Positions 9,261-58,370 of a stretch of DNA of 64,000 bases are shown here, piece after piece. The DNA is taken from NCBI GenBank assembly GCA_050084515.1, contig CM114271.1, positions 1,426,001 to 1,490,000 of the forward strand, written 5' to 3'. The notes beneath the pieces were generated by a model that worked only from the letters and a program-made list of their open reading frames with translations, had not been told where the DNA came from and ran no database searches. Position 1 is the first letter of the stretch, and every line of letters starts with the position of its first letter. Position numbers and translations under genes: made by a program. The stretch comes from Blasia pusilla. Lineage: Eukaryota.

Positions 9261-10389
9261 TTCAGAAATTAGCGCCTGTTGAAAAATGCAAATACGGAGC
9301 AGGTTGAGGCAACATGACCACGAATGAATTGCAAACAAGCTCCCTCAGGCCTCAACGAACGAATTGCATACAAAATCCCTCAGGGCAGGCGGGGTCACTA
9401 CCTCTCCAATGCGCCAAAGAATCTGAACAAAGCGGGGTCACTTTTCAGCGTGGAAGGTCGGAATGAGATTTGCCCAGTAGTGCTGCTGATTTATAGCGTA
9501 GTACATTTGAATTTCAAATCATCACGGTGCGATGGCATGCACTCACCATCCGCATGCCATTTACATGCATATGAGACCGCCATCCCACATAAGAACGGAT
9601 ATCCATCTTCGAATATCTGGTGCCGACCCTGAATAGTGCCGCCGCCGGAAAGTTTTACCACGGGCATTACTAGAGACGATCCCGATTCCGAGCAGGCAAT
9701 ACGGGTGAAAGGACCCGTCACTCAGACACGACCCACGAGGCATCAATAACACCTCTGATCTCTCGGACTATCGTGAGGCGGTCGAGAGAGGGGGATGGAA
9801 GAAGGAGCTCCAAGAACGCGGGCAGCTACATAGGGCAGCATGCCCGAACTTGAGTGCAGGGCTAGGAAAAGGGAGCGCAGGTTCACGGTCGTCCATGCCA
9901 AAAGGAAGAAGGGAGATGAGGAGAGTCATTATGACTCAAGGTCAGGAGTAACGGAGCTGGCAGCGGGTCAAAAGCAAAGCCGCATGCTCATAGGGAGCCA
10001 TGGGCGGAGGTAGGGAGTCGGGACGTGTGAGGGGCGGCATGTGTAGTGGAGGCCGGACGTGGTAAGGCACTAGGTAAACACAGTAGGACCGGACGTAGTC
10101 GTGGTAAATTGACTTACCAGGTTGGGAAGCGGATAAGGTGGAATGGCTTACATAGTTAGGAGAGCTATGTGGTTGAGCGGGCTTGTACGCAATTTTTCCG
10201 AGTGAGATTTTTCGGAGATTATTTTTGGAAGATCGAAGCGAGTGTCAGTGAGGTGGATGAGTTACACCGACAATTTGCAGGGGAGAGTTCATGATGGAGT
10301 GTCAGTGCGCATAATTCCGACGGATTGTCCGCATCTATTGACGGGAGGATCGACTTGCTATGCGAGGAGATGGTTGTGATGTAGAGGTT

Positions 10390-14817: not shown

Positions 14818-14907
14818 CTCCTCCTCCTCCTCCTCCTCCTCCTCCTCCTCCTCCTCCTCCTCCTCCTCCTCCTCCTCCTCCTCCTCCTCCTCCTCCTCCT
14901 CCTCCTC
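14818..14907. repeat. (CCT)n microsatellite, about 30 units
   Basis: Perfect trinucleotide run seen directly. Confidence 0.98.
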
Positions 14908-28100: not shown

Positions 28101-30060
28101 GCATATCTACCAACTTCGCCGCCACCGCATGCCATGACTCTGTGGGGGACGTCTCAGGCACCCGCTCTGAGGGCAAGTTGACCACCTCCTCAACTACCTC
28201 TAAACAAGAAGAAATCACCTCTCCACGCTCACACAATGTGGGGGCCAGCCGGAACACCTCAGCTGGTCCAACTCCCAACGTGGCCAACTCTATGGCGGAA
28301 AATAGTGGAGTTTGGCTCACTTTGGTGGCCACCTCCAACACTATGGTTGACACTGACTCCACTCAAGCCGACATAGGAGTTGTCACTCCAACTCCTCATG
28401 ACGTCAACGAACCTGCCTGACGTGTAGGCATCGCTGCTCGTTGAGGCACCAGCGATGGCGGTGCCTCCAACAATGTGAATGATTGTGGAACCCTGGCCTG
28501 CCGCCCATGTGTCCCCTTCGCTTGGTCAATCTCAACTCCACCTCCGGATGGCTTAGTGTGTCTCGCAACACCCCGAGTCACCATTGCATCCACCTCAACC
28601 TGAGCTGCACTACACATAAAACCCATACTAGCGAGATCCTCACCCGGGTCAGGGTGAGAGGTAGAAGCTGGAGCCACACTAGTTGCTTGCGGCTCCGTGC
28701 CTTCCCTGAGCTGCATCATTGTCATGGCAGCAATCCTCTACTCCAACTGATCGATGCGTCAGAGAAGTGCCAGCTCTAGTGCTCCTGCTCCATCTCCTCT
28801 GGTTGGTGGTGGTCCTCTACCACCACGTCTAGGAATAACTCCCCAACCTCCTCCAGGACGACCACCCCTAGGCCCTCGGCCTACCTCTGGACGTGCCTCT
28901 TGACGAAGGTCAAAACATCTATCCCTAGTATGACCATATTTGTGGCAATAGTCACACTGGTACTGTGGTGGGGCCATCCTTTGTGGCTCCTGAGCAATTG
29001 GAGGCGCTCGTGGTCCTCTCCCATGCTGTGTGCAATCTCTCTGCCTATGGGCCCCTCCACACATCCAACAAGACAACATCGGTCCGTGATGGGCAACATA
29101 TGTAGGTACGGGTGGTTGCCTCATAGGCTCACAGTACCTACCTTGCTCTCTGGGCACAATGGCTTGCTCCCGTGGTACTGGAACTCCTTGTGGCACATGT
29201 GAGATCATCGTCGCTCGTGGACCCGTCGACTCTCTAGAAAGTCCAGCGGTCACTACTTGCTCCTCACTCATGTTGAGCTCAATACGCTCAGCACCGCATT
29301 TCGGACTCTCCTCCGTAGTTCTCGATCCAGAACCACGTACCAATACTGGACTGACTGCACCTCAATCACTCCATACATAGCAATGATCAGCCTCCTCATG
29401 CGCATGAATGCCTCTCTCAGACTCTCACCCGATCGTCATTGAAAATTCTGTAGACTCTTCATCTTGTCAGTACGTACACCCTGGTAGCTCTTCCCCAACT
29501 ATCGGAAGAACTCCACTGTGGGACTGAAGCTGGGTGGCCCTCTACCACCAGAGGTCTGTGCCACATGGCCAGTCTCACTGCCCTCCTCTCCATCTAGTCT
29601 CTAGGCTAATGATCTGGGTCTCTCTCCTTTCAAGATCCCATCATATACCTCGCGACCACTAGTGAACACATACTCTGGAGCCCAATACATCCTCCAGGCA
29701 TCAATCTCTATGGAATATAGTGATCGAAACTCCATGTATCATCCATCGGAGGACCCTCCAAGTGTTGGAACAACCCCTTCCACACCATGAAAGGTTTGAA
29801 CCGAGTCGGGGTCCGTATCTCCTAGAAGTCGCATCACGTGTCGTACTCCTGGATAAAATCATCTAAGTCAATGGTGCCCACTGCATCCGAGAAACAACGC
29901 ATGCCCCGATGGCCCATGTCGTCCACCTCCTGCCAAGTGATACTGCCTCCATCTGCGATCTCGTCACCAGACCCGGTGTCTTGTGATGACGATCCAACCA
30001 CGGGTGGATGTCGAGGTAGCTCCTCACTTGTTACCACTCTGTATCTCACTACACTCCATG
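25135..30060 (-). mobile_element. Degenerate Ty3/Gypsy copy A: gag, protease, C5 DNA methyltransferase, internally deleted RT, RNase H
   Basis: Gag IDLDDFIQEYDT; knuckles CWMCGGAHRQRDC and CDYCHKYGHTRDRC; protease VLLDSGAQPL; RT start PIFRRPYRYSDMER fused to GKCKFF..YLGH; AFLGLENFYR; RNase H TDW..VAYASR..FTLITDHQ. Confidence 0.9.
26290..27240 (-). pseudogene. Retrotransposon-encoded DNA (cytosine-5)-methyltransferase domain
   Basis: Motifs in canonical order: I VRVLDLFGGISTG, II YVERD, IV AAWPCQGHS (PCQ at 26949-26957), VI YILENVP (ENV at 26818-26826), VIII AHRPRLLWTN, X RQVLGQAMDLNCLTW. Stops and a frameshift are present. Confidence 0.88.
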
Positions 30061-31425
30061 TCACACCACTACTACTGCTAGCACTACCCCGTTCTTCTGA
30101 ACCGTGGAAGAACGTCGTGATAACAACTCTGTCTCACCCGCTCAAGCACTCACACTCACCGAGAGTCTCCCACACTCCTCACTACCTCACCTATGCTAAC
30201 ATCAATCCCATGATGACACGCCCAATCTCACGCACTCTCAACACTCAGGCTCACCATGAGCCTCCCACAAACTCACCTAACCTACCGACACTCTCGGATC
30301 ACATATGCGACCCCTACTTGGCAACCGTCGTATATCCACCAACATGCTACACATGAAAAGAGTTTACACTCGTCACCATCATTGCACCCACCTAGCATCA
30401 ACACTCTCAATCACATAAGATAAGTGTGAGAAAAGGGACTCAAACGGGTAACCTGATCACGCCCACCAACCTACTGTACCGTCAACATCCACTCCTCCAC
30501 ATGATATGAAAACCTCCGCAGCACAACACTCTCCTTGACCACCACGTCAAACCTCTCGTCAGCATCGGTGTGTATGCCTCCATCATAATCCCCGCAAACC
30601 CCAGCCATGCCCGAAATAGATCACATCCCGAATATCTCTCTGCCAGCCCCAGATGCATATCGTGCGCATACACATCGCTACACAACATACATCGCTATCA
30701 TCGAGCACACACGATCCCATGCTAACTCATGGCATCCCTACATAGAGGCAAGAAGTACCAAAATATCTCAAATCTCATTCTCTCTTTGTAAAGTAAGATC
30801 CAATCTCTCTCTACACCATCTCACACCGTAGCTCTCAAAGGTGTGCACTCTCTCTCATGGCAAACCAAACCCTCTCCAAGAGAGAAGTTTGGGTTACACT
30901 CACAAGGCAAGGGACCATAGCTCCGCCGCCTTATGCCAAGAGGTTCAACAAAGAGAGAATGAACTCTCTAGCTCTCTCTTGGAGATATACCCCCTTCCCT
31001 CTCCCAAGCACTCTCAACGGTAACCTATGCTTGCAGGTCATCTCCTTGGCTCTTGATCTGATGTAGTGGATCAAGGGCCACTTCCCAAAGTGGAAATTCA
31101 GCTATCCCTAATATGGGAACTTACCGGAAATAGTAAGTTTCTCTATATGGCTCCAAATGAGCCGAAACGAAGGGGAAACCTACTCTCTCAGGTTTCTCGA
31201 GGCCTCAATAGGTCATCCTTGACCTCCTAGGCCTGTCCTCCACTACTCGTGCAGACGCTTTGCTAGATCCCGCCGATCTATCCTAACAGTCGTGAAAACT
31301 GTCGTGCGCATACACATCGCTACACAACATACATCGTTGTCATCGAACACACACACAAACACACACGATCCCATGCTAACTCATGGCATCCATACGTAGA
31401 GGCAAGAAGTACCAAAATATCTCCA
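30050..31425 (-). repeat. LTR between Gypsy copy B (upstream) and copy A (downstream)
   Basis: Starts with TG at 31425 after PPT AGGGGGGCGAT (31426-31436). TATA-like GGGGTATATC near 30990. The inner part (30050-30500) matches the region 5' of gag in copy C. Inner boundary uncertain. Confidence 0.65.
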
Positions 31426-34400
31426 ATCGCCCCCCTAGTTGGTGGTTAGGTCCCTCTAACTCTAGATAGCCATCTATCCCTACCTACCACGACATACATC
31501 TCTAGGATGCTAAGAGCAGAAAGGCCGGGTGCTCATGTGGCCCCATCGTTGATCGCCTTCATGTCTTCCATGTCATAAAAAAATCGGAATCGAAACCTAC
31601 CTAGTATCTCCTCTATGTACATGTGGGACACATCCATCGTCCCTGAGGAACCCTAGTGAGAGGTGGCGTCAGACATGCCATATGCCAACCTCTCGAACAT
31701 CCATCACAGACTAGCATCGTGGCCGTACCACGAGCAGAACCACACAGCATACAACGCAAGCCTGCAAAAACTACTGTTGAGCTTGGATCTACTGTTCCAT
31801 CAATGTTAGGAAGGTGACATGGCACACAATTACGCACATGGTCCTTCCACACTATACCATCGCGTCCCTCCAGCAAGAGAACACCACATGGCAAAATGTC
31901 ACACACTTTCAAGAGAGTGCGCCCTGCAGTCACATCCAACGTCATCGGTGCCTTCAGCTACAAGTAGACATAATCTCCCTGATGAAACCTCTGGATAGTT
32001 GGTTGATAACCACCACCCCAAATAGTCGCATACCTCAACGTATCCCGATGTTGCGCAATCGCCAAGTTCTCGAACGACATGGGCATCACTCTCCAAAACA
32101 ACTCAGCCCTCTGAGAACATCCTTGCATCCATACATCTGGGTCATCAAGGTCCAGCACCTCAACAGCATCTCGACGAATGGCCGTAGGTAAATCTGGCTC
32201 TCGGCCATAAAGTAGCAAGTACAGTGAAAAAGACGCTAAGGATTCCTGCCTGCTAGATCTTTATTCCATCGCCAACCACGGCAACTAGAGGTCCCAATCT
32301 CCTAGGTGACCTCTCTATAAGCCATACTTGCATAAACTCCTCTTCACCGTCTACACAACTCTCTCCGCTAATCCATCCGCCTCGGGATGATCTCGCGAAG
32401 TCGTGCGGTGTTCGATCATCAACTAATCACACAAGGTCTGGAACTCATCGCGTAACTCGGTACCCTGGTCTATCAACACCTCAGCCGATGCGCCATAATG
32501 ACTCAAAACTCTCTCAAGTAAGGCATAAGCTACTCCCTCACTCGCTTTGTCAAGCAATGCAACCAACTCGATCCACTTTGAGAAGTGCTCGACCATCACC
32601 AACACATAACGACTTTCACACTCTGTCAAAGGCAAAGGTCCTGCAAAATCCAAACTCCATCTTTACCCTAAGCCCATGATTGGTAATGGATGCAACTATG
32701 GAGTCGGAGCATTGAACGATGCTTGGACCTGATCGCACACCATGCACCTGGCAACAAATTTTTGAACGTCAGTCTGCATGCCTCGCCACCATACTAAATC
32801 TGGAGCAAGTTGTACGTCCGCATCACCCCAAATTGACCCAACTCCTCGTGGGCATGTTGCACTAGTCATGCTCTCTTCAAAGGATTTGGCACTACGCATA
32901 CTCTACCATCCTCCCAAATCCTCAAAACATGTGTCCCCTCCCAACGGAACTGTCTGGCCCGCTGTAGCATCCGATCCCGCTCTCTAGCACCCATGGTGCT
33001 TGCAATGCTGCCAGTACGAAGGTACTCCAAGACTACTCCATCATCGTGAATATCTCGGCCACGTGTCGTCTCCTCACTGGCCTCGGGATCCAAGGACTCT
33101 CCACTAGACCTCGCCATCGAAGTCTCCACACTCTGGCTCTCCATAGCCAACATGCCTAAATAGGCTGACGCGTGCCAAGCTTCCCTGTAAATCTTGTCGG
33201 ACTCCATCAACCACTTCAATGGTTGATGATCAGTGATGATGGTAAAGGGGCTGCCGAATAAGTAACACTTGAAATGCACGACAACCCACACTACAGCCAA
33301 ACACTCACCCTCATATGAGTTGAACTTTGCCTCTGCAACATTGTTCGAGCGACTAGCGTAAGCCACCATGAACTCTCTACCCTCATCATCATGTTGGTTG
33401 AGCACCGCTCTAAGCCCCAACATGCTCCAATCTGTGTGCAAGTGGAAAGGACGCCCCTTGATCTGTCTCCTCAAGATGGACACGGACGTCAACCTATTTA
33501 TGCTCGCTCCTACTCATCCCCCCAGTGCCACTTATGCTCAACCTTGGTCAGTAAGGTTACCGACTTCGCAATCGAACTAAATCACTTGACGTACCACCGA
33601 TAGAAGTTTGCCAATCCCATGAATGCGAGAATATGGCTCACATGTGTAGGGCATGGAATGTGTGAGATAGCCTCTACCTTTGTCTGCTAAACACCAAGGC
33701 CCCCTGGGTATATCATATGACCCAAGTTCCCAATCTGGTCGTAGAAGAACTTGCACTTGCCTGGATGTAGCGTCAGCCCATGTAATTGCAATCGTCAAAA
33801 CACCTCCTCTAGATGTCGCTCATGCTTCTCAACCATGGCGCTAAAGACTATATATATAACACCTAGCAAAATCTAGACCAGCCAAGATCCCATCCATGAT
33901 CCTCTGAAACTCAGCCGGGGCGTTCTTAAACCCAAATGGTAAGAACCGCCACTGGTACAAACAATCCTTCCCGTGAGGATCGATGCCCCAAAATGCCGTC
34001 TTCTGCATGTCCTCCAATTAATCTAATAGGCAACTGATGGTATCCGGCTCGCAAATCCAATGAACTGAAGACCTTTTCCTGACCAATCGCATCAAAGATC
34101 TCCTCAGGGATGGGCATGGCATACTTATTGGACTTCGTCTCCCGATTGATAGGTCGGTAATCCCCACACATCCTTCTATCCGTCCAGTTGCCATGCACAT
34201 CCTCCTTGGCGGGCATGACAATGGCAGATGCATACTCCCCATATGACATCTCCACTAGTCCTGCTCTGACCAAGTCCTGTCTCCTACTCTGAATCAGAGT
34301 CCTCTCCATATCAGTGTACCTGTAGGATCATCGGAAGATCGACGTATCACTCGACAACTCAATGCGGATCCCCGGTCCCTTCAGCATACCCAAATCCTCC

Positions 34401-34465
34401 ATGCTAAACGCAAAGCAACTCCTATAACTCTTGAGGAACTGATGTATCCGGCGCCGCTCTCCTCT
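31426..34465 (-). mobile_element. Ty3/Gypsy copy B pol: RT, RNase H, integrase, C-terminal PHD finger
   Basis: RRMCGDYRPIN, FSSLDLRAGYHQ, LHTDWS..VAYASRS..TDHQPLKWL, integrase DFAGP..IDQGTE, PHD finger. Many stops. Confidence 0.92.
31616..31753 (-). other. PHD finger at the integrase C-terminus
   Basis: CMLCGSARGTATMLVCDGCSRGWHMACLTPPLTRVPQGRWMCPTC gives a full C4-H-C3 pattern. Confidence 0.92.
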
Positions 34466-36879
34466 GGGGGCTGGTATTCTGGCAGGAGAGAGTAAGAGAG
34501 GAGAGGAAGAGAGGAAGAGAGGAGAGTCTCTCTTCAAAAAAAAGGGCCAAATCCGCCTCCTCTCTTCAAAACTTTATGACATATTTGAAATTTTTGTTTG
34601 CTTTCAAATCCATGAAAACTTTAGAAGAGAGTAGGTAGTGGTCCACATTTGGTCCTAAAAAAACCTCCTTTTTCCTTGGGGCGAAAAAAAAATAGACATC
34701 ATAAGACCACTACAAACATTTTTCATCTCCTCATCTCGGTCAACAAAAAGCAATGCCCTTGGTATTTTTGTTGGAGGACCACCGGATGCCAACCCTAAGC
34801 ATCTACTCCAAGGCATCTTGCTGACATTTCTACCTCATCTACTTCGAACCTGCCTAACTAAAGCCTCTTGAGCAACATTGATGGCATAGGCTCGACCTGT
34901 CTCTTGGACATGCTTGAAGGTGAGATCTACCTCTATATTCTTCCCATGCTTGCTTCTTCTCAATCTGGTTCGAGCCCCGCCCTCAGTTCACACCTCCACT
35001 TAGCTCCACCTAGACAAATCTTCCAGAAATCACTCCTTGGATCCTCTCAACTCCATAGATCTCTCCCTTGGATTCTCAAGCTTTATGGCCTTCAAATGAG
35101 GTCCTCTAGGCTTCCATGAGGAATATTCTAGCCCACAAGAGTCCAAGCATTTGAGCTCAGCCTCCATTGACCTCTTCTTAGCCCCTTATTCTTCATTTCT
35201 TGGCCCTAACAATCAGATCCACCCCCTTGGTTCAAACCCTCCTCTACAACAGCAATCAAGCACTCTATCTCCTTCATTGGATACCCTGGAGACTCCCTAG
35301 TGCCTACACCATCTCCCTTGTCTCCTCTAGGCTTGAGGTCAATGGAGTGACTTGGCTGCATTATCACCTTGTACAATCTTCTTGACTTGTTCTTGGACAG
35401 CGTGCTGCTGGGCCTTTCTCTTGCACCACCTCCACAAGTCCAAAAAACATATTCCAGAAAACTTTTACAAAAACCATTATGGGTTCAAAAAATCTCGTCC
35501 TTTATTACCTCCGAAGGAACCTCGAAAATGTACATTGAACCTAGTCTATGATTTCTTCAGCCTCGTCATCTACAAATTTACTCCTAACTCTCCTCGGTGG
35601 CATGATACCAAAGGAATGTCCTGGGATTCAAGTGGCTCCTCGGCGGTTGTAGACGGGGATCGAAAATGTTGGCGATTTGAGAGCCTTGGCCCCCCCTAGG
35701 TACACCATAACGGTCCCATGTAACTGTCTCGAGTCCCACCGCCTTCCTCGGTATACCTTGTACGCTCGCAATGTGACACCCATCCAAGTATCAATATCGC
35801 TCCGTCCCGGTAATACCACTATGGCAACCGCAGGTAGAAGGAATCCAACACGTCGAGAGAAGAAAAAAGCCCTCGCTGCCTTTACGAGTTGAGGGGAAGG
35901 TGCCAAGGAAGAAGCCCGCCAGGATCGCCTCATCCGAAAGGGTCCGATCAGGCAACCTGTCGGAATCGACATGGTTTCTGGAGGTGGTAAAAGGGTCCGA
36001 TGGTCAAAAGCGAAAAGTTGAGGAGAAATCCGACGGTTGCGTGGTCATAAAGTGAAAATTGCAAGCGGGAGAAATCCGACGGGTTGCAAAGTAGAAGACC
36101 GTGGAGTACATAGATGATCACATTCGAAAAGACAAAATGATCACCAAACATTTACAAGCACCACCATCGATTGAAAAAATCTTTACGCTTTATATCATCC
36201 GAAAAAAGCTCGGAATCAGACATTTGATCTATTCTATGAAATCTTTTGCCAAATTATCAAAAACTCCCTACTCCAAAGCAGCTGCAGTCAAGTTGGGTCG
36301 TTGAGTTCTTTGAACTCACTCGTCATCGCCCGAGAGCTCTTGCAAAATCACTTTCGGCCTTGCCCCCGATTTTGGGAATCGTTGGAAGTGACGATGGACT
36401 CACTACCAAGGGTGGCTCGAACCGAGCTCTCGGCCCGGTGGAGAGTTGTACGCCCAACGAGCCTTTCAGATTCTGCCTTTGCCTCCTTGCAAAGGTCAAG
36501 CGATTCTGCTTTCCTCGAGCGGAGAATGTTCTGCCACTCTGCCAGCGCCTCGATACTCGCCCTGAAAGGCCCACTAAGTCGAACACCAAGTCACCCGGCC
36601 TTGAGCAGAGCTCGATGAGCGTTGCATCGGTCGGGCGACTTTTCCCTTCCTCCCGAAGCGGGTATGTCTTGCATGTAAATTCCGAGGGGAATTGTACAAA
36701 CTATCTAAGCTGTACCCATCGGGCATGGATCCACAGGATCCTGGATCTTGAACACTGGAAATTGTGCTCGGGCCAAATGAAGCAAGACACGTAGGAGTGG
36801 TCCATCGTAAATCAAGACAAAACAATGTCGAAACTAAAGAAGTCGCTTGAGAAGATTTTCAATAATCGACTTTGGATCA

Positions 36880-37250
36880 ACTTTGTCGGAGTCCGACGGG
36901 TTGTTTTGTCCCGGACCCACCCGTTGGAACCCGGACGGGTTGCGATTCTTTTGGGTTTTCCAAGTTGATTTTGGTTTTTTTCGGATGCAACCCGTCGGAA
37001 GCGGACGGGTTCCGCCTAGACCAGCCCATGCTCTTTGAGAGAAACCCGTCGATAGCAACCCGTCGCTATTAGGCGGGTTGCATCCAAAACAAAATCAATC
37101 GCAACCCGGAACCCGACGGGTTGCGGTACACCGCATGTGTTTTCCCCGTATGTGGGAAAGATGCAACCCGCCGGAAACCGACGGGTTGCTCACCGAGCAT
37201 GGGCTGCTCTAAGCCGACAACCCGTCGCCTTCCGCGGGTTGCTCACGAAA
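36880..37250. repeat. Palindrome cluster 1 (about 7 copies, intronic)
   Basis: Variants of GCAACCCGTCGGA-N-TCCGACGGGTTGC at ~36885, 36918, 36987, 37055, 37101, 37163 and 37218. Confidence 0.9.
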
Positions 37251-39558
37251 AAAACCAGGCATCGACTCTCATTCTACACATCATTATAAGATAATTGAAA
37301 TTATTGTATAGAATATAGCCTTACCGAATCGACTCGTTGCGGATCGAGTGGGTACTCGCTTTTTATGATCCATGATTGTGCCGTCCTCCACTTTAGCGAC
37401 CTCTTGACGCACTAGAGGTTGAAGAGCTCGTCCTCGCTCCCTCGATCCAACACCAAGAAGCAGCCCTGTCACTTAGATAGGCGTCGCAAAGGAGAACAAA
37501 AGTGCAATCGGTCATAAGTGAGCGGCAGATTCCACTCAGGTACCTCGTCCGCCGGATTTTCGCCCCAAAGTCGCAACCCCGAGGGCAGATCGGCGATCAA
37601 GAGATCCACCGCAACCTCTTCCACCACTCCATTCACCGTCCAGGCAGCGTGCCCGTTTCATTGGAGCTTCCTTCCCAGCGTTGTCACTTTTTCGATAGCA
37701 GTTGTCGACGCTTGAGAACTGAAGTTGTTCAGCTCATCCAGTAAAGAGGTGAACTGAAGGAGGACGCTTGTCCGGGTCATTGTTTGTCTGTGTCTTCCCA
37801 AGGATGATGGGCTGTATTCTCCTTGGGACAACCCGAGCACCTCTCGCTTCCGCTTCTCTCTAGTCTGGGGACGGCTTGTCGGGGTTTCGATGACCTCGGA
37901 TTCTGGTGGCGTTTTCTTGGCCGAGGACCTGGTCCGACCCTCTCTTCCCGCTCGTCCGGATGATTCCGCCTCTGGCCTCTCATCTTCAGGCTCTCTTTGG
38001 GAAGTCTCGGCCTCTGAATTTTTCCCTCCCCTCGCCTTGCCTTTGAGACCCGCTGTGGATTTGTCTTTGGCTGTCCGGACCTTGGAAGCCAACTCAGTTG
38101 TCTCGTGGGCCTGCTCTTCTGCATCTCCTCCGAAGAAGTCTTCAGGCTGGACAAAATTGGGGATGTCGTCTTGTCCTGAGGCCACTGCATCATGAAGCAC
38201 TCGTAAGTCCTTATCCGCGATGTCTTCAGGGTCGTTGAAGTCGAGCCAAATGGGGCAATTCTCCACCTCCCAATCCGACATGTGCTGACCCATCTCCACG
38301 TCATTCATGGAGAATGTCTCTGCATCCGGCGGCGAAGCCCACAATTTCAAGGCTACCGGCAATTTTCCCCATGTACCTGCGTTCTTACACTGGACGAGGT
38401 ACCTGAATACCATCCGTTGGGCAGATTTTAGTCAAACATTATCGGCCGTCTGCTCCTGTAGATCTCGCTTCTTCTTCGCTTGATCCCGTTTGTTACCCTC
38501 TACTTCTATGTCAAGCTCTGCCTGAGGGAGGACGCAAACCTTGAACATGGTCTTGAATCCAGGGTTCTTGGTTGGCTTGTCCCGGATGTCGTCGAGCCAA
38601 ATCTTGTAATCTCCAGAACTTTCAAGGTTTGCTTCCGGCGGAATGGGCTCTAATCTTCGAGCTCGCTTGCGGACCCGTCAAAGACGGACTTCCCGATTAC
38701 CGCGGGCGTCCCGAAAGGACCATTGGCGTAGCCAATGCGAGATCACTGGATCGGACACACCTGGAGGATGGTGTGCCGCCCTCTTCCGGGCCCTCGAGCC
38801 CGAGATCGATTTTCATCCATCGTATCCTCTGAACTTCGCTAATCCCGGATAACGCAAAATGATGCACGCGATCCAGCGACACTTTCTCCCCAATCCGACC
38901 ATGCGGATCTTCATCCCTCTTCGCGACGCTTGATAATCGCCTTGAGCTCCTTGTAGAACTCCGGACCAAGTTCGGGGTTGAGAATCTTGATGTATCGCTG
39001 CATCTTGCTCGCCGTGTATTTTGTTGCAACAGATCTGGCGGCTTGGATGAATTTGGCGCTCAGACGCAGATACCTTCTCCCCGCTCGGCTCGGTCGGCGC
39101 TTTTCTTGCGGCCTGTATCTTCGACCAACAAAGGATGGTGAATGCCGGTAAGCATCTTGAGAAATAAACTTGTTTGCCCAAGTTTTCTTCTTAATTTGAG
39201 CACCGGAGGGAATGTTACCCACCATCTGATTGACAAGGGCATCTTGCAAAGGGTGCTCAAATTAAGAAGAAAACAAACCTCAAGATACTCATCCTTTGTT
39301 GGTCGAAGATGCGTGAAGAAAAGCACCTTCCTCACGGAGGGAGAAGGTATCTGCGTGATCCTGGATCCAATGGTGGGTAACATTCCCAAGATCCGATACA
39401 ATTCTCAACCCCGAACTTGGTCCAGTTCCAAACTCAACGTCAGAAGAGGGATGAAATTACATTGGGTTCCGCATCCCGTTATCCGGATTAGCGGTTCAGA
39501 GGTCGATCATGAAAATCGCTTCGAGGGTCGGATTCTAAGAGGGCAACCATCCTAAATG

Positions 39559-39950
39559 ATGCAACCGTGAGTCCGCTACGGGTTGCATTCAGATTTGCTA
39601 ATGCAAGGTAAGCAACTCGCCGGACTCGACGGGTTGCCGGCTCGCACGCTTTTTCGGATGTTTTTAAGATTGCAACTCATCGGACTCCGACGATTTGTAT
39701 GATTGAACATATATTTAACTAGTTGTTGGCCCAAAGCAACCCGTCGGACTCCGACGGTTTGCTTTTGGGCCAAAACTAGTTAAATCTATGTTCCATCAAA
39801 CAAGTCGTCGGAGTCCGAAAGTGTCAATCTTAAAAGACATTCGAAACCGTCGATCTAGCAACCCGTCGGAGTCCGAAGAGTTGCTTTCTGCCTAAACAAA
39901 CCTAACCCATTCATCAATCGAGCAACTCGTCGGAGTCCGACGAGTTGCAA
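39559..39950. repeat. Palindrome cluster 2 (7 copies, ~60-bp period, intronic)
   Basis: Copies at ~39561, 39612, 39672, 39736, 39800, 39858 and 39922. Confidence 0.92.
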
Positions 39951-41417
39951 AAGTGTTAAAGATACTTACGTGTTCATGGCATGCATTGCCATCTCCACCG
40001 TCGCCATGTGATGAGGGTATGGGTGAAGGACCCGCCTTGCACGCAGAAATGTGCCTCAATGAGTTGGGGCTCCTCCATAAACTTGGTCCACGCCATGAAC
40101 TTGTGATTTCCATCCCGGATGAAGAAATGCAGATTCCTCATCCGGCTGAATTCCGTGCCCTCAACTTGCTCTTCAAGTCCTGGTCTCGCATCCTCCGAAT
40201 GTGTCGAGATTTTCCAAGTCCTCCTCAGTAACGAGCTTGGGTTCCATGCTCGTCGTGAAGGCTGAACATAGAAGGGAGGAAAATTGTCCACGAGGATCTT
40301 TGTCGCCGCCGATTGTTTTAGCTTTGCGATGTCCTCGTCGGATCAGTATTTGCGGACGTATTCCATTGTCCTTAATGGCGAGTGGAATCCTCGGGCGTTG
40401 TGGCCCTCCATGAGTGCCATCCGCTTTACCACCTGTCGAACCGGGACAAGAGGAATAAGCTACACTGAAATCCCAATGAATTGCAATTCACATAATTAAA
40501 AAACCGAACCTCTCTTACCCGCTTGAAAATGGAGTCGGTTTCTTGACCAGCTAACTTGTATGCGAGACAGGGGTGGCAAATCGATCGGGAACTCGTCGAT
40601 CCGATAGAGGTCGATGTCCTCCGCCGGGCTTGGAGTCGAATGACCTCTCTCCGGCTTCTTCCGCCATGTCCACCATCTCCACACGTTGGCGGTCCTCATG
40701 ACCTCGTCGTCATCAAGTTGAACAGTGTTGTTTCCACTATGTTGATTGTGTCCCGGACCGTGGGGACATTTCCGCATCTCAACACTTGTGGTTGGACGGG
40801 CTGGGCTATCGTCAATGGCTATCTCTTTTTCCCGCCTCGCTTTAGCCAATTCCGCCCTCCTCAACGACGCGTCCAGACGCTTCTTTTCTCTCTTTTCGTC
40901 AGCGATCCTTTTCTTCAAGGCCTGCGACGTCTCGGCCTCTTCGTTCTGTTTATCTAGCGCCGCTTGATTAAGTCTCGCCAGAAGCACTTGGTTGTGCATC
41001 TCCGCTTCCCTTTCCCGCTCCTCGATTTCCTGCTGCCTAATTTCATTCGCCAAACGAGGCGCAGGAGAAGCTGACGCAGGAGTTATAATGGACTTGGGAG
41101 TGAAGCTCCCGGACTTGTTGGCTTGTGTTTTTTTCCTCATCATTTTTGCCGGAAATGCCTCCGCCTATGTCCACGACGAATCCCTTGATCAGTCGCCTTG
41201 CTGATGTCGAGATGGGAGCTCGTCTCGCCTTGGTGGTTAGCTCGAATCGTCCCGATATCGCTCGGTCAAACCGTCTCGCTCTCGTTCCGTCCTATCGACT
41301 CGCAATGTGTCGCCGTGTGAAATGCTCCTTCGTATCTGATCAGTTGCTGCGCGGGAGAGTGAGGAGTGAGGAATGAAGATCGTGAAATGAGAAACCGGAA
41401 ATGAGCGACTTCTGCCC

Positions 41418-41425
41418 TATTTATA
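41418..41425 (-). promoter_or_regulatory. Candidate TATA box of the ParB/MTase-like gene
   Basis: TATAAATA on the minus strand, ~275 bp upstream of the ATG at 41143. Confidence 0.5.
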
Positions 41426-41509
41426 CTTTTCTAGCCGTTGGGCTGACCGTTGGGTCCCGTCGTCCTTTCGACGGCGACGTGCCGAATCTTACGGAAGTCC
41501 GGACGTGAA

Positions 41510-42185
41510 AAATCGCAACCCGTCGGAGTCCGACAAGTTGCGCGGCTCCGCCATCCTGGGTACGTCGCCACGTGCGCGAGCAACCCGTCGGAGCCCGACG
41601 GGTTGAGCGCCTCCGTCGTCTTCGGAAAAGAACGCGAGGTACCCGCGCAACCCGTCGGAGACCGACATGTTGCGTGCCTCCGCCAACGGCGTCGCCGCCG
41701 TCGCTTGAGCACCCGTCGGAGACCGACGGGTTGAGCGCCTCCGTCGTCTTCGGAAAACAACGCGAGGTACCCGCGCAAGCCGTCGGAGACCGACATGTTG
41801 CGCGCCTCCGCCGTGTTTGGGACGGGAACGGGACGTATTTTGGGCAATCCGTCGGAGACTGTTGGGTTGCATGCTTCCCTTATCAAGGGTTAGGAACGAT
41901 GGCTTCCCGTGCAAGTCGTCGGAGTCTGGCTGGCTGCACCACAAGGCGACGCCCTTGCGCAACCCGTTGGACGGCGACGGGTTGCACGCCTCGCCGGGAA
42001 CAGACGGTTTGCACGCCTCCGGCATCTTCGAGCAAGAAGGAGCGGTATCCCAGCAAGTCGTCGGAGAGCGACGGGTTGCTCGCTTCGACAATGTTTAGCA
42101 GAAGCGTGCAACCCGTCCGATGCCGACGGGTTTGCAAGCCGTAAGCCGGGTAATTTCGAGTTACCAAGACTCCGACGGGTTCCAA
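41510..42185. repeat. Palindrome cluster 3 (about 12 copies) in the divergent promoter, including a ~129-bp tandem duplication
   Basis: Copies at ~41515, 41580, 41647, 41709, 41775, 41844, 41911, 41959, 41986, 42053, 42108 and 42168. Confidence 0.92.
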
Positions 42186-42323
42186 GTGATGCGCAACCCT
42201 CGCTTCCCAAACGGGAACATATTGCAACACAATTGAATGTGTTCTGGTGGATCCATTGTGTCGACAATCTCCCCACCGAATTCATCTTGTCAAAAAATCA
42301 TCAGAGTATCATTTCCTATTCAC

Positions 42324-42330
42324 TATAAAT
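42324..42330 (+). promoter_or_regulatory. Candidate TATA box of the MULE transposase
   Basis: TATAAAT just downstream of palindrome cluster 3 and upstream of the transposase frames. Confidence 0.4.
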
Positions 42331-42544
42331 TAAATATTCTCATTCTCATTCTCGTCTCCTCCGTAGGAATCTTCTTGGAATGGATAATTATGTTAAGCTC
42401 ACTTGTGGGAGTCATCCGCGGCCCTTCCTCAATCAAAATCATTCGACCCCAAGCTCGTGAGTCTTTCGTAGTAGTGGATGAAAATTTTTCATCATTCGAT
42501 TTCTTCTTCAAATTGGAACCATCTTTGTATCCAAAGATGTTAGG

Positions 42545-45500
42545 GTGGAAGGTACGGAAGACATAATAGGTGAGACGATCCAGCCTGTGACCTCGCACCG
42601 TAAAGTATGGAATCTCCTACCATGCCGCAAATGGTCAATACAGAGTTTATGGCCTGCCCTTGAATTCGTCTGTTTCCCAAGTAGCGGTCTAGAATTTCCT
42701 AGTGCTCCGAGCTCACGTTTGCAACTCCAAGCTCTGCAGATCCGGCCGACTCCAACCGACGCTCAGAACAATGTTGTTCTTCCCTGAAGAGATTACGGAT
42801 GTTATCAACCTCGGCGGATCGTCGGACACCAATCGGGCCTGTGTCCGCCTACGTTCCTCTTGCGAGTATCGGCAATAGTTTGCTTTCGTCTCGCCCTTGA
42901 AAATGTTCAAGCATATTCTTGTCGACGAGTTGCCGCCCACGCACGATGGTAATCGCATTTTTGAGTTGCCTCCACTTGCCGCTCTGCTCAAAAGAAGGAT
43001 GGAGGGCGCTGAAGGGTATGGGAGAAAGTCGATTGTCATCGATGGTGCAGCTTCAACGGACGGTGCTTCCATCCGAGATGGTCCTTGGATTGTCTCCCCC
43101 GCCGCCAATGCGTGGGAGCCTTGGAGTGTAGAAGTCCAACATGCCCGTATCTAGAGCGCAACGGGCGAGTCAATACGCCGTAATTCCCCCAAGAATGCAG
43201 AAACTCCATACGAGGTGGGTGCCACAATACCGCCGGGAGGCCATCGATGTCCTCATTGTCGCATCGCCTTCGCGTTGGAGCGTGTCCTGCATACATATTT
43301 TCATTGTCCATGACTTGGGCTCCACGCCGGTGAATACAAGGTCGGGCAGTTCATGTTGGCTCCCACACTCATCCCTGTGACCGATGCAATTCAAAGACAC
43401 ATCAAGGAGGATGTGGCAAAGAAAGTAGCCGAGGTCTTCAGAAACTCTCCGGGTTCAAAGCCCGGGGTGATCAAGCTCACAACGGCATCACAAATTTGTG
43501 AACAATTTCTTGGAATTCCTGGACAGGGCGAGATCACGGCGGTTGAGGAGAAACAACTCTGGGAAAATCTCGCATTTCTCGCTGATCATGAATGCTTCAG
43601 GAATTTGCTGCGTGAGATACGAGTTCTGGATGGAAAGACGGCCGAAATGGATGCCATCGCCAGAATCAAGGCCAACTCCAGGTTTCCATTCATTCAGAGA
43701 TGGTAGTTCATGGGCCAAGGAGGCGAGGGATCCAGGGCCTATGTCTTCAAAATGTCAACCACAGGTCCGTCGAGTGGCCTCGATCTTATAGATCGAATGA
43801 GGGAAGGGGAAGATCTTTACGGGAGTTGGGTCAGCTTTGATATTTGCTACAGAGTGCTGAACGGATGGTTGACAATGGGTGCTCACGTTTATGACCATGT
43901 GGAGAAGGGACTCAAAACTATATTTGTGTGTGAAGTAAAGGCAAAAGATGTTGGCAGTTTGAAGATGTGCTGGTTACTCTTATTGGAGGTGGTGAAGGAA
44001 AACAAAAGGCCACCTCCGGAAATTTATGGGTTCATGGCGGACAATGCACAACCTGGGTGGATTGCTATCCGGGAAGTGTTCTGGGGTGGAGAGGTTCAAC
44101 TTGAGAGGGAAAGGTCGGATGCTTTCCATTGGCAACAGTCTGTGACCCGGTACACCAAATCTTGCCATCAAGGAGAATAAGAGGACGGAGCATGTCACTC
44201 TACTCCAACGCTGCAAGGACAAAAAACCTTGAAGCGAGGCCATGGACCGCCAGAAGAACTTCATGGGTGGTGGAGGAAGCATGCGATTGAGGGGAAGTAC
44301 AAAGAGTTGTGCTCTTGGTTGAGTTGGTGGACTGTACGTATGAGACAATGGGGAAACTTCATGCGGTAGGTGAGTTCACTATTTTGTCTTGTCAAGCTCA
44401 CGCTGAGAATTGTTTGTAAAGTTGTAGCTCAGGGTGAGAAGTGTGGGAATTATATGGATTTCAAACCCAAGAGACCAAGCAAAGTTTGATGCGACGGGTT
44501 GCCCGAGGTTGCCCGAAACCGACGGGTTGCCGAGTGTGCAACCCGACGGAAATTGACGGGTTGCATCCACATGTTTGGTGTCATCTCGGTGTGCAACCAT
44601 TCGGGACCCAACGGGTCATAGAGTCGTTCATGGGATGCTCGCCTTGCAACCCATCGGGTTCTAAGGAGTTGCGTGAGGTGGGTTTAAGGTTACAACACGC
44701 CGGGACCGACGGGTCGAGAGTCGTTCATGGGATGCTCGGGCCGCAACCCGCCTGGTTCCGGCAGTGGCTTATTTCTTTGACTCTTGGGTTATTTTCGTTC
44801 CCTTCTAACATTGCCGCTGCAGTGGATTGAACGTTCATGAAAATGCCCTCTGCCCCAACACAAGTGGAGCAGAAAGTGTTCATTCCTCTTGGAGGTCGTC
44901 ACAAGCATGCCAACGAATTTCACTTGTGGAGGCATGCCAACAAGACCAGGCAAGAGCAATGCTGATCTGCCTGCAAAGATCCCATATCTTTCTCACAAAA
45001 GGCATAACAAAAAAAAAAAAAAAGGGCCGTCGATCTACGAGCTCTATGTTAGGGCGGCTGTGAGATCTGGTGATGAAAAATTGTATGTCGAAGCCTTCAA
45101 CCGGTGCGTAGCTGGAACTCCACTCGAGCAAGACGTACACATAGGTGGGGATATTCGTGGGCGGGTTTCAAGACGTCCCATACAGATGGTGGTAGAGCAA
45201 TTAAGACTTATCGAACGAGACTCGTGGAGACCAGATAAGTATCTTGACTTCAGGCAGGTGAAGAGGCAGATCGAGGAACAAATCCGGTGATTGATTTGGA
45301 TGAGGAAATTACACCGCCCAGGTATTCGGGGACCCCGGACCCGTCCCAAATCCGTGATGGAGTTACTTCTCCAAAATCAGTGAATGTTTTATTTCAAAAG
45401 CCCTCCGTTGCTGGAAGTTCGCAACATCCCGCATCCACCGGGTGGTTCAACAATATGGGATTCGGTAATGGAGGTGGATTGCAACCTAAAACGGTGGCAT

Positions 45501-46340
45501 ATATCTTGGAGCAACCTAGGACGTGGACCCACTGCGGGCAGGCAGGATCTGATGGCATTAGGAGAGCATGCGGCACTTTCCTAAATAAGAATCTGCACAA
45601 GGATCGACGACCACCGCTCGGGTTTTGGGGACTCAAAACCTTTGATCGTTTCACGAGGACCGGGGATCAATTGAAGTACTTCTTCTGCCCAAATGAATCT
45701 TGCCCTTTCCGGAAGTCTTATCCGGCTGCCATTGGAGGTCCCGGGAATACCCCCACGATTTGGCCCATCGCCGCAGGCACAAACTGCACTCAAGACGAAG
45801 TGGACAATCTTACAAGTGCCGGTTTCGCACTCAGAGACGGGGAAGTTCGAGCATGTTCAGCATTTAGAGACCTTTGCATTTCGTATTCAACCCAAGATTG
45901 ATGTCAACATGTACCCGGAGAAGGTGGATGATCTCAATCCATTATTTTTTTTTGAGTCTAGAAATGGGGTGAAGAGAAACAGAATGTGTAGGCCAACGGT
46001 GGAGAGAGCAAAACAAATTGCAACAGCTCGGGAGGCAAAAATGGAGATCATCGCCACGAAAGATGTCCTGAGTGGCAATGGAATAGGAAGGATGTATTGG
46101 GTCACGAACAACACTGTAAATTCAAGTGTCACAGGGGTGTATGTGGTGCACATCTGTTGCTTTCCCACATGTTCATGTGATGACTTTGTCCAAAGAGAGA
46201 CAAGTGGCAAAAGGTATTTCCCTTGTAAGCACATGTACTATGTGTTCTTTGGTAGTTTTAAGAGAGTCGAGGTAGGAGTAGGAATCCACCAACCAGTGTC
46301 CCTCAAAGAAGTTCAAAGTATTTTAAACAAACCACTTTGA
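42545..46340 (+). pseudogene. MULE DDE transposase with C-terminal SWIM finger; frameshifted
   Basis: SWVSFDICYRV, GFMADNAQPGW, DAFHWQQSV, WLSWW, TSGAESVHSSW and SWIM CSCDDF..PCKHMYYVF. Intron 44370 (GTGAGT) to 44822 (TGCAG). Start position approximate. Confidence 0.85.
44490..44770. repeat. Palindrome cluster 4 (about 6-7 degenerate copies) in the transposase intron
   Basis: CGACGGGTTGC, GCAACCCGACGGAAATTGACGGGTTGC and related variants between donor 44370 and acceptor 44822. Confidence 0.8.
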
Positions 46341-46741
46341 GGATGCAAAATGAAGTTTAAGATTGTACTTTTATTTTTTTCTCAACCTTCACTTTGTGAG
46401 CTTGAACTCTATTCAGCCGCGGCAAATGATAGATTTTTTCCAGACCTTGGATGGAAAAAGTGATTGGTTCCACACTTATGATTCCACTGATTTCTCTGTT
46501 TTGTAAATTTTGTGCAATTTGCAACTTTCTTCGGACTCAAAGGGTTGCCAAAATATGGAAGAAAAAAAAAATGTGGGATTGTTTAATAAATGAACAAAAA
46601 GTGCAAAAAAATCACACAAAAAGTTTCCTCTCTTCAACCCAACGGAAACTCTCTTCAAAAAAAAGTATCTATTTCGGTTGAAGGTAGTTTCCTCTCTCCT
46701 CTCTCCTCTCTTCCTCTCTTCCTCTCCTCTTACCGCACCTC

Positions 46742-47090
46742 CTCTCCTCTTGTCAACTTAGGGCCCATATCTGGCTCCCAAGTCTCCATCGTGACTACAG
46801 TAGGACTCTTCGGCGCGGATATCGGTGGTTGCTATGGTGCAACCGCGTCTCAAACAACAACACTTGGCCGCTCTCCTCCAGCCAACTGCAAACTTAGATC
46901 TCCTCCATGTGCAGTGCCCGGAACCACGCTCGATGTTGTGGCTATCATCTCCTAGCGTACCTGCAAAACATCCCAAGAAGTCCAAGGGTATCTCTCTTGA
47001 TCTCCCCTATTGTGTAGATCTCCTCGGGTCTCACCCCCAGCCACTGCCTCCGCCATGTTGCACTCAATGTTCTCGGCGGTCCTAAAAACA
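46742..47090 (-). mobile_element. Upstream remainder of Gypsy copy B (pre-RT linker)
   Basis: VVTMETWEPDMGPKLT matches EVTMETWERVIGLMLT in copy A (~25945-25992). Confidence 0.8.
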
Positions 47091-47114
47091 TCTCTCAATG
47101 TAGGGGAGGTGTTC

Positions 47115-48135
47115 TATAGTAAAGGATTTCTATCAAGAGTTTAACAAGAAGTATCAATTGATCTGAATTCGTTCCCTTTAAGAATAGGATCTGGATTAGA
47201 AATTACATTTAAAGATTTTGAGTTGATTCTGTGTAGTCTATGCATCAACAAAGCATAAGGTGGATTTAACAGTAGCACCAGACGTGTACAACTGAACAGG
47301 ATTTTAACTATAAGGAGGTGAACTCCTCCTAAAACAGAATTAAATCGAAGGGAATGTCAAATTCTAGAGACATGGTAGTACATAAGTATTTTCGACACGA
47401 AAAAGAGACTGCGGTGAGACATATGATCTCCCTCTGCCAAACTCATTCGAAACAGAGATGTGTGGAGAAATGATTCTCAATTAATACGTCGGCTCTTTAC
47501 TTTTGCTTGAAGATACTGTTGTCATTCTCCAACTCCATCCTCAAAGCCATCAATAACAAGTGAGACTGATTCGGGGGTTCAAAGAGAAATAATTCTTCAT
47601 TCCAAGAAGAGCAACTACTGTTGATTCGATGGAATGGGTCAGTTTCGTTCTTCAATGGCCGATCTCTAAGGGCGAGAGTCTTCTGTCACAAGAGCTACTC
47701 TTCCTGGTAAGTATCTGACTATGAAAATGGAAAAAAGACCCTTCTTCGACTCCCGGCCTATGGTTCAAGGGGTCGAAAGCTTACATTCCTAACTGTAATT
47801 ATGTTTAACTTCTTCCTAAAGCTACCAACCGTTCAACTCCTGCAGTGTTCATCGAATCAATATCTTCACTAAAAACTGTCACGTAACTGTCAAAATTGTG
47901 AACTCGTGGAAAGGCAAACTCGTGATCCCTTGAGCTCAGAATTAATTCCCAATGATTTAAGTGGGCTAATAACTGAACGTTCCTAGTTTCAAATAGATTC
48001 CAATTTATTCTTATTTCCTAATATGTATTCCCTATTCCTAAATCTAAGTGGAATATTCTTAACTAAGGGAATTATTGCCTAGATGTATCTAAAATCGTCT
48101 AAAATCTCTACAACTTAAGAAAGGTGCATATCACA
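47115..48135 (-). repeat. 3' LTR (1021 bp)
   Basis: Starts TGTGATATGC at 48135 on the minus strand after the PPT (48138-48148). Near-identical to 57369-58370. Confidence 0.93.
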
Positions 48136-57368: not shown

Positions 57369-58370
57369 TGTAGTAAAGGATTTCTATCAAGAGTTTAACA
57401 AGAAGTATCAATTGATCTGAATTCGTTCCCTTTAAGAATAGGATCTGGATTAGAAATTACATTTAAAGATTTTGAGTTGATTCTGTGTAGTCTATGCATC
57501 AACAAAGCATAAGGTGGATTTAACAGTAGCACCAGACTGAGTGTTTAACGTGTACAACTGAACAGGATTTTAACTATAAGGAGGTGAACTCCTCCTAAAA
57601 CAGAATCAAATCGAAGGGAATGTCAAATTCCAGAGACATGGTAGTACATAAGTATTTTCGACACGAAAAAGAGACTGCGGTGAGACATATGATCTCCCTC
57701 TGCCAAACTCATTCGAAACAAAGATGTGTGGAGAAATGATTCTCAATTAATACGTCGGCTCTTTACTTCTGCTTGAAGATACTGTTGTCTGTCTCCAACT
57801 CCATCCTCAAAGCCATCAATAACAAGTGAGACTGATTCGGGGGTTCAAAGAGAAATAATTCTTCATTCCAAGAAGAGAAACTACTGTTGATTCGATGGAA
57901 TGGGTCAGTTTCGTTCTTCAATGGCCGATCTCTAAGGGCGAGAGTCTTCTGTCACAAGAGCTACTCTTCTTGGTAAGTATCTGACTATGAAAATGGAAAA
58001 AAGACTCTTCTTCGACTCCCGGCCTATGGTTCAAGGGGTCGAAAGCTTACATTCCTAACTGTAATTATGTTTAACTTCTTCCTAAAGCTACCAACCGTTC
58101 AACTCCTGCAGTGTTCACCGGATCAATATCTTCACTAAAAACTGTCACGTAACTGTCAAAATTGTGAACTCATGGAAAGGCAAACTCGTGATCCCTTGAG
58201 CTCAGAATTAATTCCCAATGATTTAAGTGGGCTAATAACTGAACGTTCCTATTTTCAAATAGATTCCAATTTATTCTTATTTCCTAATATGTATTCCCTA
58301 TTCCTAAATCTAAGTGGAATATTCTTAACTAAGGGAATTATTGCCTAGATGTATCTAAAATTGTCTAAAA
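57369..58370 (-). repeat. 5' LTR, missing its first ~31 bp
   Basis: Matches 47115-48104. Ends ...TTTACTACA at 57369 on the minus strand. Similarity stops abruptly at 58370. Confidence 0.93.

Follow-up and report, generated by a model that had tools for sequence, protein, structure and literature searches.

Arrays of a 27-bp palindrome in the internal non-coding DNA of a decayed Mutator-like transposon from Blasia pusilla

A stretch of 64,000 nt from Blasia pusilla (GenBank assembly GCA_050084515.1, contig CM114271.1, positions 1,426,001 to 1,490,000 of the forward strand), in the following called the window and numbered from its first letter, contains a whole DNA transposon whose interior carries five clusters of a 27-bp palindrome. 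The explanation we regard as the best one is that these palindromes form internal arrays of dyad binding sites for a protein encoded by the element itself, and would work like the VANC targets in VANDAL elements; drawn by analogy, it has in our judgment about an even chance of being correct. The arrays are confined to a bounded element, absent from its ends, situated in a plausible promoter region and in verified or probable introns, and alike only in the long dyad, a combination that fits site arrays of an element-encoded protein. All results on the arrays come from a single, decayed copy of the element.

The palindrome, its host element and the positions of the arrays

The consensus of the palindrome is GCAACCCGTCGG-N3-CCGACGGGTTGC, that is, 27 bp made up of two 12-bp halves. 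The 3-bp gap mostly reads A-G/C/A-T/A, so that the ideal unit is a 27-bp palindrome about one central base. With up to three mismatches, the complete pattern occurs 13 times, always within 36987-44564, and not once in 100 dinucleotide-preserving shuffles; for the 12-bp half-site with up to two mismatches there are 52 occurrences, whereas the shuffles averaged 2.14 and never exceeded 6. Half-site conservation spans all 12 positions, each consensus base being present in 41 to 52 of the 52 sites. Five clusters with a total length of 1,855 bp hold 50 of these half-sites, namely two at 35952-36087 (cluster 0), 11 at 36893-37228 (cluster 1), 10 at 39575-39948 (cluster 2), 19 at 41515-42183 (cluster 3) and eight at 44491-44754 (cluster 4). 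The other two lie at 42922, within the transposase coding sequence, and at 10317, outside the element; the latter is the only half-site in the remaining 51.7 kb of the window. A position-weight scan of the motif agreed with this distribution. Altogether 33 dyads were tabulated, many of them with one decayed half. A preliminary description of this DNA had given the coordinates of four clusters correctly, and the partial copies that it reported at ~35950-36090 are the two decayed dyads of cluster 0. The observed/expected ratio of CpG is 1.09-1.45 in the clusters vs. 0.64 in the window and 0.71-0.75 in the transposase exons. Mismatches to the consensus show a mixed spectrum that is uninformative, 42 of 118 being C>T or G>A.

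Beyond the window, the motif was found at 116 loci of metagenome contigs, none of which had more than a single exact match and two half-sites; we assume all of these to be chance matches in GC-rich DNA, the 25 top-ranked ones having a GC content of 0.58-0.77. Viral contigs contained it as eight single matches only, and the 68 proteins retrieved were free of peptide traces of it. Literature searches that extended to liverwort and Marchantia transposons, with supplements outside their range, brought up neither the motif nor the element; of 81 papers with motif-string matches, the 20 listed were unrelated by title.

The borders of the transposon were obtained from a paralogous empty site. The element has inserted into the part of a gypsy-like retroelement that encodes reverse transcriptase, splitting this retroelement in two, and the retroelement copy at 30.6-34.4 kb has a paralog at 25.2-30.5 kb. 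Since this paralog aligns colinearly to both flanks (25781-25944 to 34300-34464, and 25938-26057 to 46743-46862), the 12,276 bp at 34467-46742, with ends precise to ±1 bp, are an insertion in the retroelement. They are bordered by a 9-bp target duplication (34458-34466 and 46743-46751, 8/9 identical), and the single 9-mer of the paralog, TCTACTCAT (25938-25946), is the counterpart of both TCTCCTCTG on the left and TCTCCTCTT on the right flank. Terminal inverted repeats of ~45-60 bp close the element, an imperfect, GA-rich one on the left (34467-34526, plus strand) and its counterpart on the right (46701-46742, minus strand), with a 30-nt perfect inverted match between 34497-34526 and 46701-46730; neither contains the palindrome motif. 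The end-to-end local alignment score of 78 compares with a mean of 44.9 [standard deviation (sd) 5.0, maximum 63.5] in 300 shuffles, a result that the low complexity of the sequence weakens. A 17-nt exact direct match also occurs between 34528-34544, just inside the left terminal repeat, and 46649-46665, ~35 bp inside the right one. In the standard classification, the Mutator superfamily has target-site duplications of ~9 bp (8-11). By this classification, the 9-bp duplication, the terminal repeats and a SWIM-type transposase are compatible with the Mutator superfamily. A target-site duplication of the right length and terminal inverted repeats are both present; the MULE / Transposase_mut profile remained unmatched (Pfam, E ≤ 1) among P0001-P0003, three relatives of the transposase, and 144 open reading frames (ORFs) of the window. 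The copy is dead, and both of its genes are decayed.

These two genes are divergent, with a transposase on the plus and a second gene on the minus strand, and cluster 3 (41515-42183; eleven dyads in direct orientation) lies between their ATGs (41143 on the minus strand and a candidate at 42380 on the plus strand). TATA-like boxes stand on either side of it (41418-41425, minus strand; 42324-42330, plus strand), and this region is plausibly a divergent promoter. Cluster 4 (44491-44770; six dyads) is located within an intron of the transposase gene at ~44367-44822. Coding support breaks off at 44366-44375 and is found again by 44839, splice signals (GT and AG) are in place, and P0001-P0003 all lose homology at this point, the intron position thus being common to three homologs. 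Cluster 1 (36880-37257; seven dyads) probably lies within an intron, or else in the 3' non-coding portion, of the minus-strand gene, and cluster 2 (39559-39950; seven dyads forming a palindrome of ~390 bp) in a probable intron of this gene. Both fill stretches without ORFs and have a donor-like site on the minus strand (the GT of GTAAG at 37324-37323 for cluster 1, and that of GTAAGT at 39969-39968 for cluster 2), from which we consider it probable that they lie in introns. Cluster 0 (35952-36087; two decayed dyads with one good half-site each) is found downstream of the minus-strand gene.

According to a rough exon map ~37% of the element is non-coding, the arrays making up 1,855 bp of the element, and only one of the 52 half-sites falls into homolog-supported coding sequence. 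The outermost dyads are 1498 bp away from the left and 1986 bp away from the right end, and the terminal repeats and their surroundings are free of the palindrome within 1.5 kb of either end. As the sites are non-terminal, they are not end-recognition sites for cutting. The preliminary description had stated that the clusters avoid exons and are not subterminal, and both statements hold. Its assignment of clusters to three introns is verified for cluster 4 in the transposase gene, while for clusters 1 and 2 the evidence consists of splice-like signals.

History of the arrays and competing explanations

What the five clusters have in common is the motif itself and not the surrounding sequence. 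In a comparison of the two 18-bp flanks of 30 of the 33 dyads (those at 37110, 42170 and 44510 were omitted, one half being shifted or missing), flank identity between clusters was 0.288 (343 unit pairs) and equaled the null value of 0.291 (sd 0.063) for random element sequence, whereas the cores were 0.618 identical between clusters. Likewise, blastn with masked cores detected no cross-cluster similarity at E < 1. Within clusters, 9 of 27 spacers were related after the cores had been masked: these form one inverted pair each in clusters 1 and 2, a three-copy direct family in cluster 3 and a direct pair in cluster 4. The underlying duplications can be traced. Cluster 2 contains a 285-bp self-inverted match with 83.5% identity, whose center at 39748 coincides with the dyad at 39749, and the long inverted repeat at 36972-37257 in cluster 1 has 83-nt arms that are 82% alike and a center (37114.5) beside the dyad at ~37110. 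Such symmetry centers on or next to dyads are predicted if duplication was seeded at the palindrome. Cluster 3 repeats with periods of 67 and 128 bp, and its higher-order copies are 88-96% alike. The arrays are thus composed of old units with randomized spacers and of later whole-segment duplications.

In the recent duplicates, cores (228/258 positions identical, 88%) hardly exceed spacers (265/315, 84%; Fisher p 0.15) in conservation; gap columns numbered 16 in cores and 49 in spacers, and two of the five comparisons overlap. A weak core excess of this kind would be the pattern expected of a dead copy and is neutral on earlier selection. The view that half-sites are conserved while spacers diverge, put forward in the preliminary description, therefore applies between clusters but not to the recent duplicates. 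Spacings between dyads (n = 27) have a median of 61 bp and a mean of 58.9 bp (sd 11.5, range 38-94). The spacing reported earlier thus recurs in the median; the regularity of 60-67 bp in clusters 2 and 3 was largely inherited, because whole units were duplicated in inverted and tandem fashion. No helical phasing was detected at periods of 10-11 bp, either in all 27 spacings (Rayleigh p 0.57-0.78) or in the 18 without visible duplication (p 0.94-0.97), and the six helical turns that had been suggested do not show as a constraint on the arrays.

This history bears on an explanation that dispenses with a protein partner, according to which a hairpin-prone 27-bp palindrome spread locally by template switching and slippage, leaving the arrays as a neutral by-product. 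The palindrome-centered inverted duplication of cluster 2, the 67/128-bp tandem array of cluster 3 and the lack of a significant difference between cores and spacers in recent duplicates are all in line with it. However, local duplication would copy the spacers too, yet most neighboring units have unrelated spacers and the clusters share the core alone; moreover, five sites up to 8.8 kb apart would require transfer of the bare 27-mer or long retention of the core while the spacers were randomized. We consider a purely neutral origin unlikely. The inverted symmetry has a further possible source, as the long inverted repeats of clusters 1 and 2, the arms of which agree at 82-83.5%, fold as hairpins. 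The clusters might thus be nested insertions of non-autonomous, foldback-like or MITE-like (miniature inverted-repeat transposable element) members of another family, with arms built from the palindrome, that landed in tolerated non-coding places. A scan for target duplications covered ~2,600 boundary pairs per cluster (8-10 bp with up to one mismatch, or exact 6-7 bp) and yielded one candidate of Mutator-type length around cluster 1 (9 bp, 36865-36873 / 37261-37269, 8/9 identical). This candidate is at chance level, ~0.3 being expected per set, and four of the five boundary sets lack an 8-10-bp flanking repeat, so that the test for MITEs proposed in the preliminary description revealed no cluster with a convincing target duplication of its own. 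The clusters also share no terminal or spacer sequence, their symmetry centers on the motif dyad instead of arbitrary internal DNA, and no array occurs in the other 51.7 kb of the window, itself rich in mobile elements. Nor are the clusters deletion derivatives of their host, because the ends of the host lack the motif. Independent insertions are, on this evidence, improbable.

The hairpins could alternatively have acted at the RNA level, the long intronic foldbacks being substrates for small RNAs, a trigger of host silencing or a microRNA-like precursor. Cluster 2 (-223 kcal/mol, z -18.1) and cluster 1 (-184 kcal/mol, z -15.5) have strong predicted folds, plant microRNA precursor models of Rfam gave sub-threshold matches, and an inverted exon duplicate lies next door. 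On the other hand, neither cluster 3 nor cluster 4, both of them direct arrays, has a long hairpin, and for a hairpin the conservation of a 27-bp core would be dispensable. The Rfam scores (MIR9408, 47.0 and 46.5 bits on the two strands, about equal, vs. a gathering threshold of 90; MIR6140, 42.1 vs. 140) stay below the thresholds, and in the two MIR9408 alignments identity is found mainly in paired columns, as in generic hairpin matches. We therefore regard an RNA-level function as very unlikely. The half-sites themselves suggest yet another candidate, since every one of them contains CCGAC, and several units ACCGAC; CCGAC is the core of the dehydration-responsive element/C-repeat (DRE/CRT) bound by DREB-type AP2 factors. 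Sites for such host transcription factors, which would confer stress-responsive expression on the transposon, agree with the position of the largest array upstream of both genes. Conservation, however, covers all 12 half-site positions and extends well past a 5-6-bp core, the strict pairing of inverted halves across a 3-bp gap is foreign to DRE, and the arrays occupy introns as well. Recruitment of a host factor likewise appears very unlikely.

Under the binding-site explanation, the binder would be a sequence-specific DNA-binding protein encoded by the transposon, candidates being the transposase, with its cysteine-rich N-terminal portion, and the protein specified by the second, divergent gene. 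Its sites would be built into the internal non-coding DNA of the 12.3-kb Mutator-like element, that is, into the shared upstream region, the transposase intron, the probable introns of the second gene and the downstream stretch, and would mark copies of the family for regulation by their own protein, be it trans-activation, anti-silencing or autoregulation, as is the case for VANC at the tandem repeats of VANDAL elements and for TnpA at the motif clusters of Spm. The arrays grew by local duplication, with tandem copying leading to clusters 3 and 4 and fold-back copying seeded at the palindrome to clusters 1 and 2. Whereas this duplication history, the motif, its distribution and the borders of the element are visible in the sequence, we infer that a protein binds the sites, which protein this is and that it regulates the element; the pattern of the clusters would be the trace expected of a protein site kept by selection in an active ancestor.

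Several observations weigh against this explanation. No dimeric DNA-binding protein was identified among the element ORFs (Pfam, 144 ORFs), and the same search returned only the sub-threshold matches Zn_ribbon_IS1595 (E 0.007) and SWIM (E 0.14), so that no DNA-binding domain was recognized. The VANC domains DUF1985 and DUF287 were absent among 144 element ORFs (E ≤ 1) and from a 14-ORF scan. Avoidance of exons is equally expected for tolerated or neutral inserts in an element that needs its genes, and the RNA hairpins of clusters 1 and 2 would also suit an explanation at the RNA level or by foldback elements. To these are added the absent phasing and the insignificant core excess of the recent duplicates described above, and the dependence of the whole argument on the sequence of a single decayed copy. 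Selection for a dimeric protein site, as proposed in the preliminary description, is supported in part, by the motif as the only sequence that the clusters share, by exon avoidance, by the distance from the ends and by the missing target duplications of the clusters, but not by phasing or by core conservation in recent duplicates.

Genes and surroundings of the element

The decayed transposase gene (42380-46340, plus strand, with the candidate ATG at 42380) was recognized by its homologs and by tblastn, in which rows of 12 chosen proteins gave coding support at 42837-44375 and 45024-46334; P0006 carries the second block back to 44839 (E 6e-10). Its ORF at 43707-44180 is 52-54% identical to the relatives P0001-P0003, and the C-terminal SWIM ORF has 63 relatives at E ≤ 1e-3, 23 of them at E ≤ 1e-10; a protein search with the latter at 'near' lengths gave no relatives. 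The encoded sequence contains the motifs WVSFD, GFMADNA and DAFHW, followed after the intron by ES(V/I), and a C-terminal CxC...CxH (SWIM-like) finger; the motifs are conserved, the last two in the forms DAFH(F/W) and (A/I)ES(V/I). Judged by eye, WVSFD, GFMADNA, DAFH and ES presumably represent the signature D, D-[C/D]xxH, E that Mutator-type transposases have. The finger at ~46150-46250 matches the Pfam SWIM family weakly (12.2 bits, cut-off 19.6, E 0.14), and three of the 16 relatives scanned (16 of 63) also come near the cut-off. For P0001-P0003, Pfam gave no match at E ≤ 1. The gene is dead, as its reading frame is interrupted by stops at 43152-4, 43311-3 and 43704-6 and changes near 44165-44235.

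Five of the ten relatives looked up are annotated as 'SWIM-type domain-containing protein' of Riccia sorocarpa and are the nearest named relatives of the transposase. On account of these names, we regard the element as being of a liverwort type. Related loci were not found by protein searches in viral contigs and prokaryote genome contigs. The AlphaFold model of P0001 is poor (predicted local distance difference test score 43), a fold search yielded nothing beyond generic matches of helical and ubiquitin-like type, with Z at the background level of 6-8, and a profile run against PDB sequences had 0 matches. One of the relatives, P0010 from Riccia sorocarpa, carries four tandem repeats of ~24 residues (corresponding to a DNA period of ~72 bp) at residues ~205-300, between conserved N- and C-terminal parts, and P0018 has a similar repetitive middle. 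The peptide repeats of P0010 may be a non-coding repeat array that was read through by the gene model.

The second gene (36323-41143, minus strand) starts with an ATG at 41143 and runs to ~36.3 kb. It is also decayed, since a stop at 40343-40345 interrupts its reading frame, which moreover changes several times. Neither the 14-ORF nor the 144-ORF scan assigned it to a Pfam family, its 257-amino-acid ORF had no homolog at 'longer' lengths, and its 116-amino-acid ORF retrieved nothing in Atlas. An Atlas lead to Transposase_28 (0.86) was weak, was not confirmed by Pfam and was dismissed. Adjoining cluster 2, an inverted, internally deleted partial copy (39252-39600) of the exon at 38729-39204 of this gene was found. 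The copy could pair with its source exon as a hairpin, and it is reminiscent of Mu killer, an inverted duplication by which MuDR is silenced.

Further repeats lie around the transposon. The gypsy-like retroelement copies occupy 25180-34466 and 46743-47100 on the minus strand, the second of them being split by the 12.3-kb transposon, and the pieces to the left of it encode RT_RNaseH and PHD domains; the PHD finger (E 8.5e-12) resides in an ORF at 31613-31957 that follows the RNase H region downstream. There is a third copy of the retroelement, in inverted orientation, at 10365-13355, which is 76-78% identical to 27627-30535 over ~3 kb. To the right, direct repeats of ~1 kb at 47117-48104 and 57371-58370 are 97.4% identical, and are probably the long terminal repeats of a younger retrotransposon of ~11.3 kb, 370 bp from the DNA transposon. 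The window further contains a complex satellite at 6176-8540 with nested periods of 184, 217 and 410 bp (77-91% matches), a perfect (CTC)30 microsatellite at 14818-14907 and five copies of a 26-bp unit (97%) at 21784-21913.

Comparison with known systems and implications

Among the systems compared, VANDAL elements offer the closest analogy. VANC21 of VANDAL21 localizes to introns, intergenic and terminal non-coding regions, where it binds a 9-base motif in fast-evolving tandem repeats, and such repeats occupy introns of both VANC21 and VANB21 as well as the region upstream of VANA21 (PMC5735166). The terminal repeats of VANDAL elements are degenerate (PMC10398659). VANDAL elements resemble the transposon analyzed here in being of Mutator type with more than one gene and imperfect terminal repeats, in the accumulation of a short, presumably family-specific motif in introns, intergenic and upstream non-coding DNA and not at the cutting ends, and in arrays built and remodeled via local duplication. 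They differ in the motif, which is an asymmetric word of 8-9 bp in VANDAL elements and here a 27-bp dyad of two 12-bp halves, and in the arrays, which are tandem there, while two of those described here are inverted duplications. Furthermore, the host element would be of a liverwort and not an angiosperm type, and its transposase lacks a Pfam MULE match. Because DUF1985 and DUF287 are absent, the element cannot be counted among the VANC systems, in which the protein binds the motif and causes local loss of DNA methylation, and our claim by analogy is that the arrays may work like VANC targets, not that they belong to a VANC system.

In Spm, the binding sites occupy the outermost few hundred bp of an element with CACTA termini and a 3-bp target duplication. 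Here, in contrast, the sites are at least 1.5 kb inside (1498 and 1986 bp), the duplication has 9 bp and the ends are GA-rich. The likeness to En/Spm TnpA lies in a 12-bp unit that occurs in many copies, partly as inverted pairs and with unrelated spacers, and that in Spm is bound by a regulator of the element needing density. TnpA of Spm requires high-density motif clusters (10.64898/2026.08.24.746577). Pfam searches among the 144 element ORFs found no TnpA-like domain. MuDR and AtMu1 share with the present element the Mutator-like affiliation, and a transposase can act there as a sequence-specific regulator of cognate copies; the AtMu1 sites are placed within the terminal repeats, whereas here these repeats are devoid of the motif. 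The AtMu1 transposase alone activates cognate copies and is thus itself a regulator (10.64898/2026.08.24.746577).

Two further comparisons concern architecture. Clusters 1 and 2 resemble foldback elements and MITEs as long inverted repeats of repeated units with little or no loop, but lack a convincing target duplication, shared termini and copies elsewhere in the window, and have their symmetry center on a dyad. The arms of foldback elements and MITEs may consist of sub-repeats. The internal activation sequence of phage Mu, which serves as enhancer and operator, is a cluster of transposase/repressor sites between divergent promoters and away from the ends. An internal site cluster between divergent promoters would be the likeness to the present element; the differences are that phage Mu is a bacteriophage with a single cluster and no intronic arrays, and that the sequences are unrelated.

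Taken furthest, the data could be read as a liverwort-type Mutator-like family with a dimeric, element-encoded protein, unrelated to VANC, that would bind a 27-bp dyad multiplied by the element in its promoter and introns and would thereby activate cognate copies or shield them from silencing, a proposal that we put forward tentatively and hold to be doubtful. If the arrays were neutral or foreign inserts, they would be ordinary transposon debris. The case also illustrates that inverted duplications seeded at a short palindrome can convert an array of sites into a long hairpin, and hairpins of this sort might become targets of RNA-based silencing. Element-encoded regulators that recognize their own non-coding repeats have so far been documented mainly in Arabidopsis (VANC, TnpA and the AtMu1 transposase). 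The same layout in an element of bryophyte type, combined with another motif design and a lack of VANC domains, would point to an arms-race strategy that is older or recurrent, and the 27-bp dyad would provide a clean motif for testing. If the proposal is true, the VANDAL/VANC strategy would have had an independent origin, and such systems would be placed near the base of the land plants.

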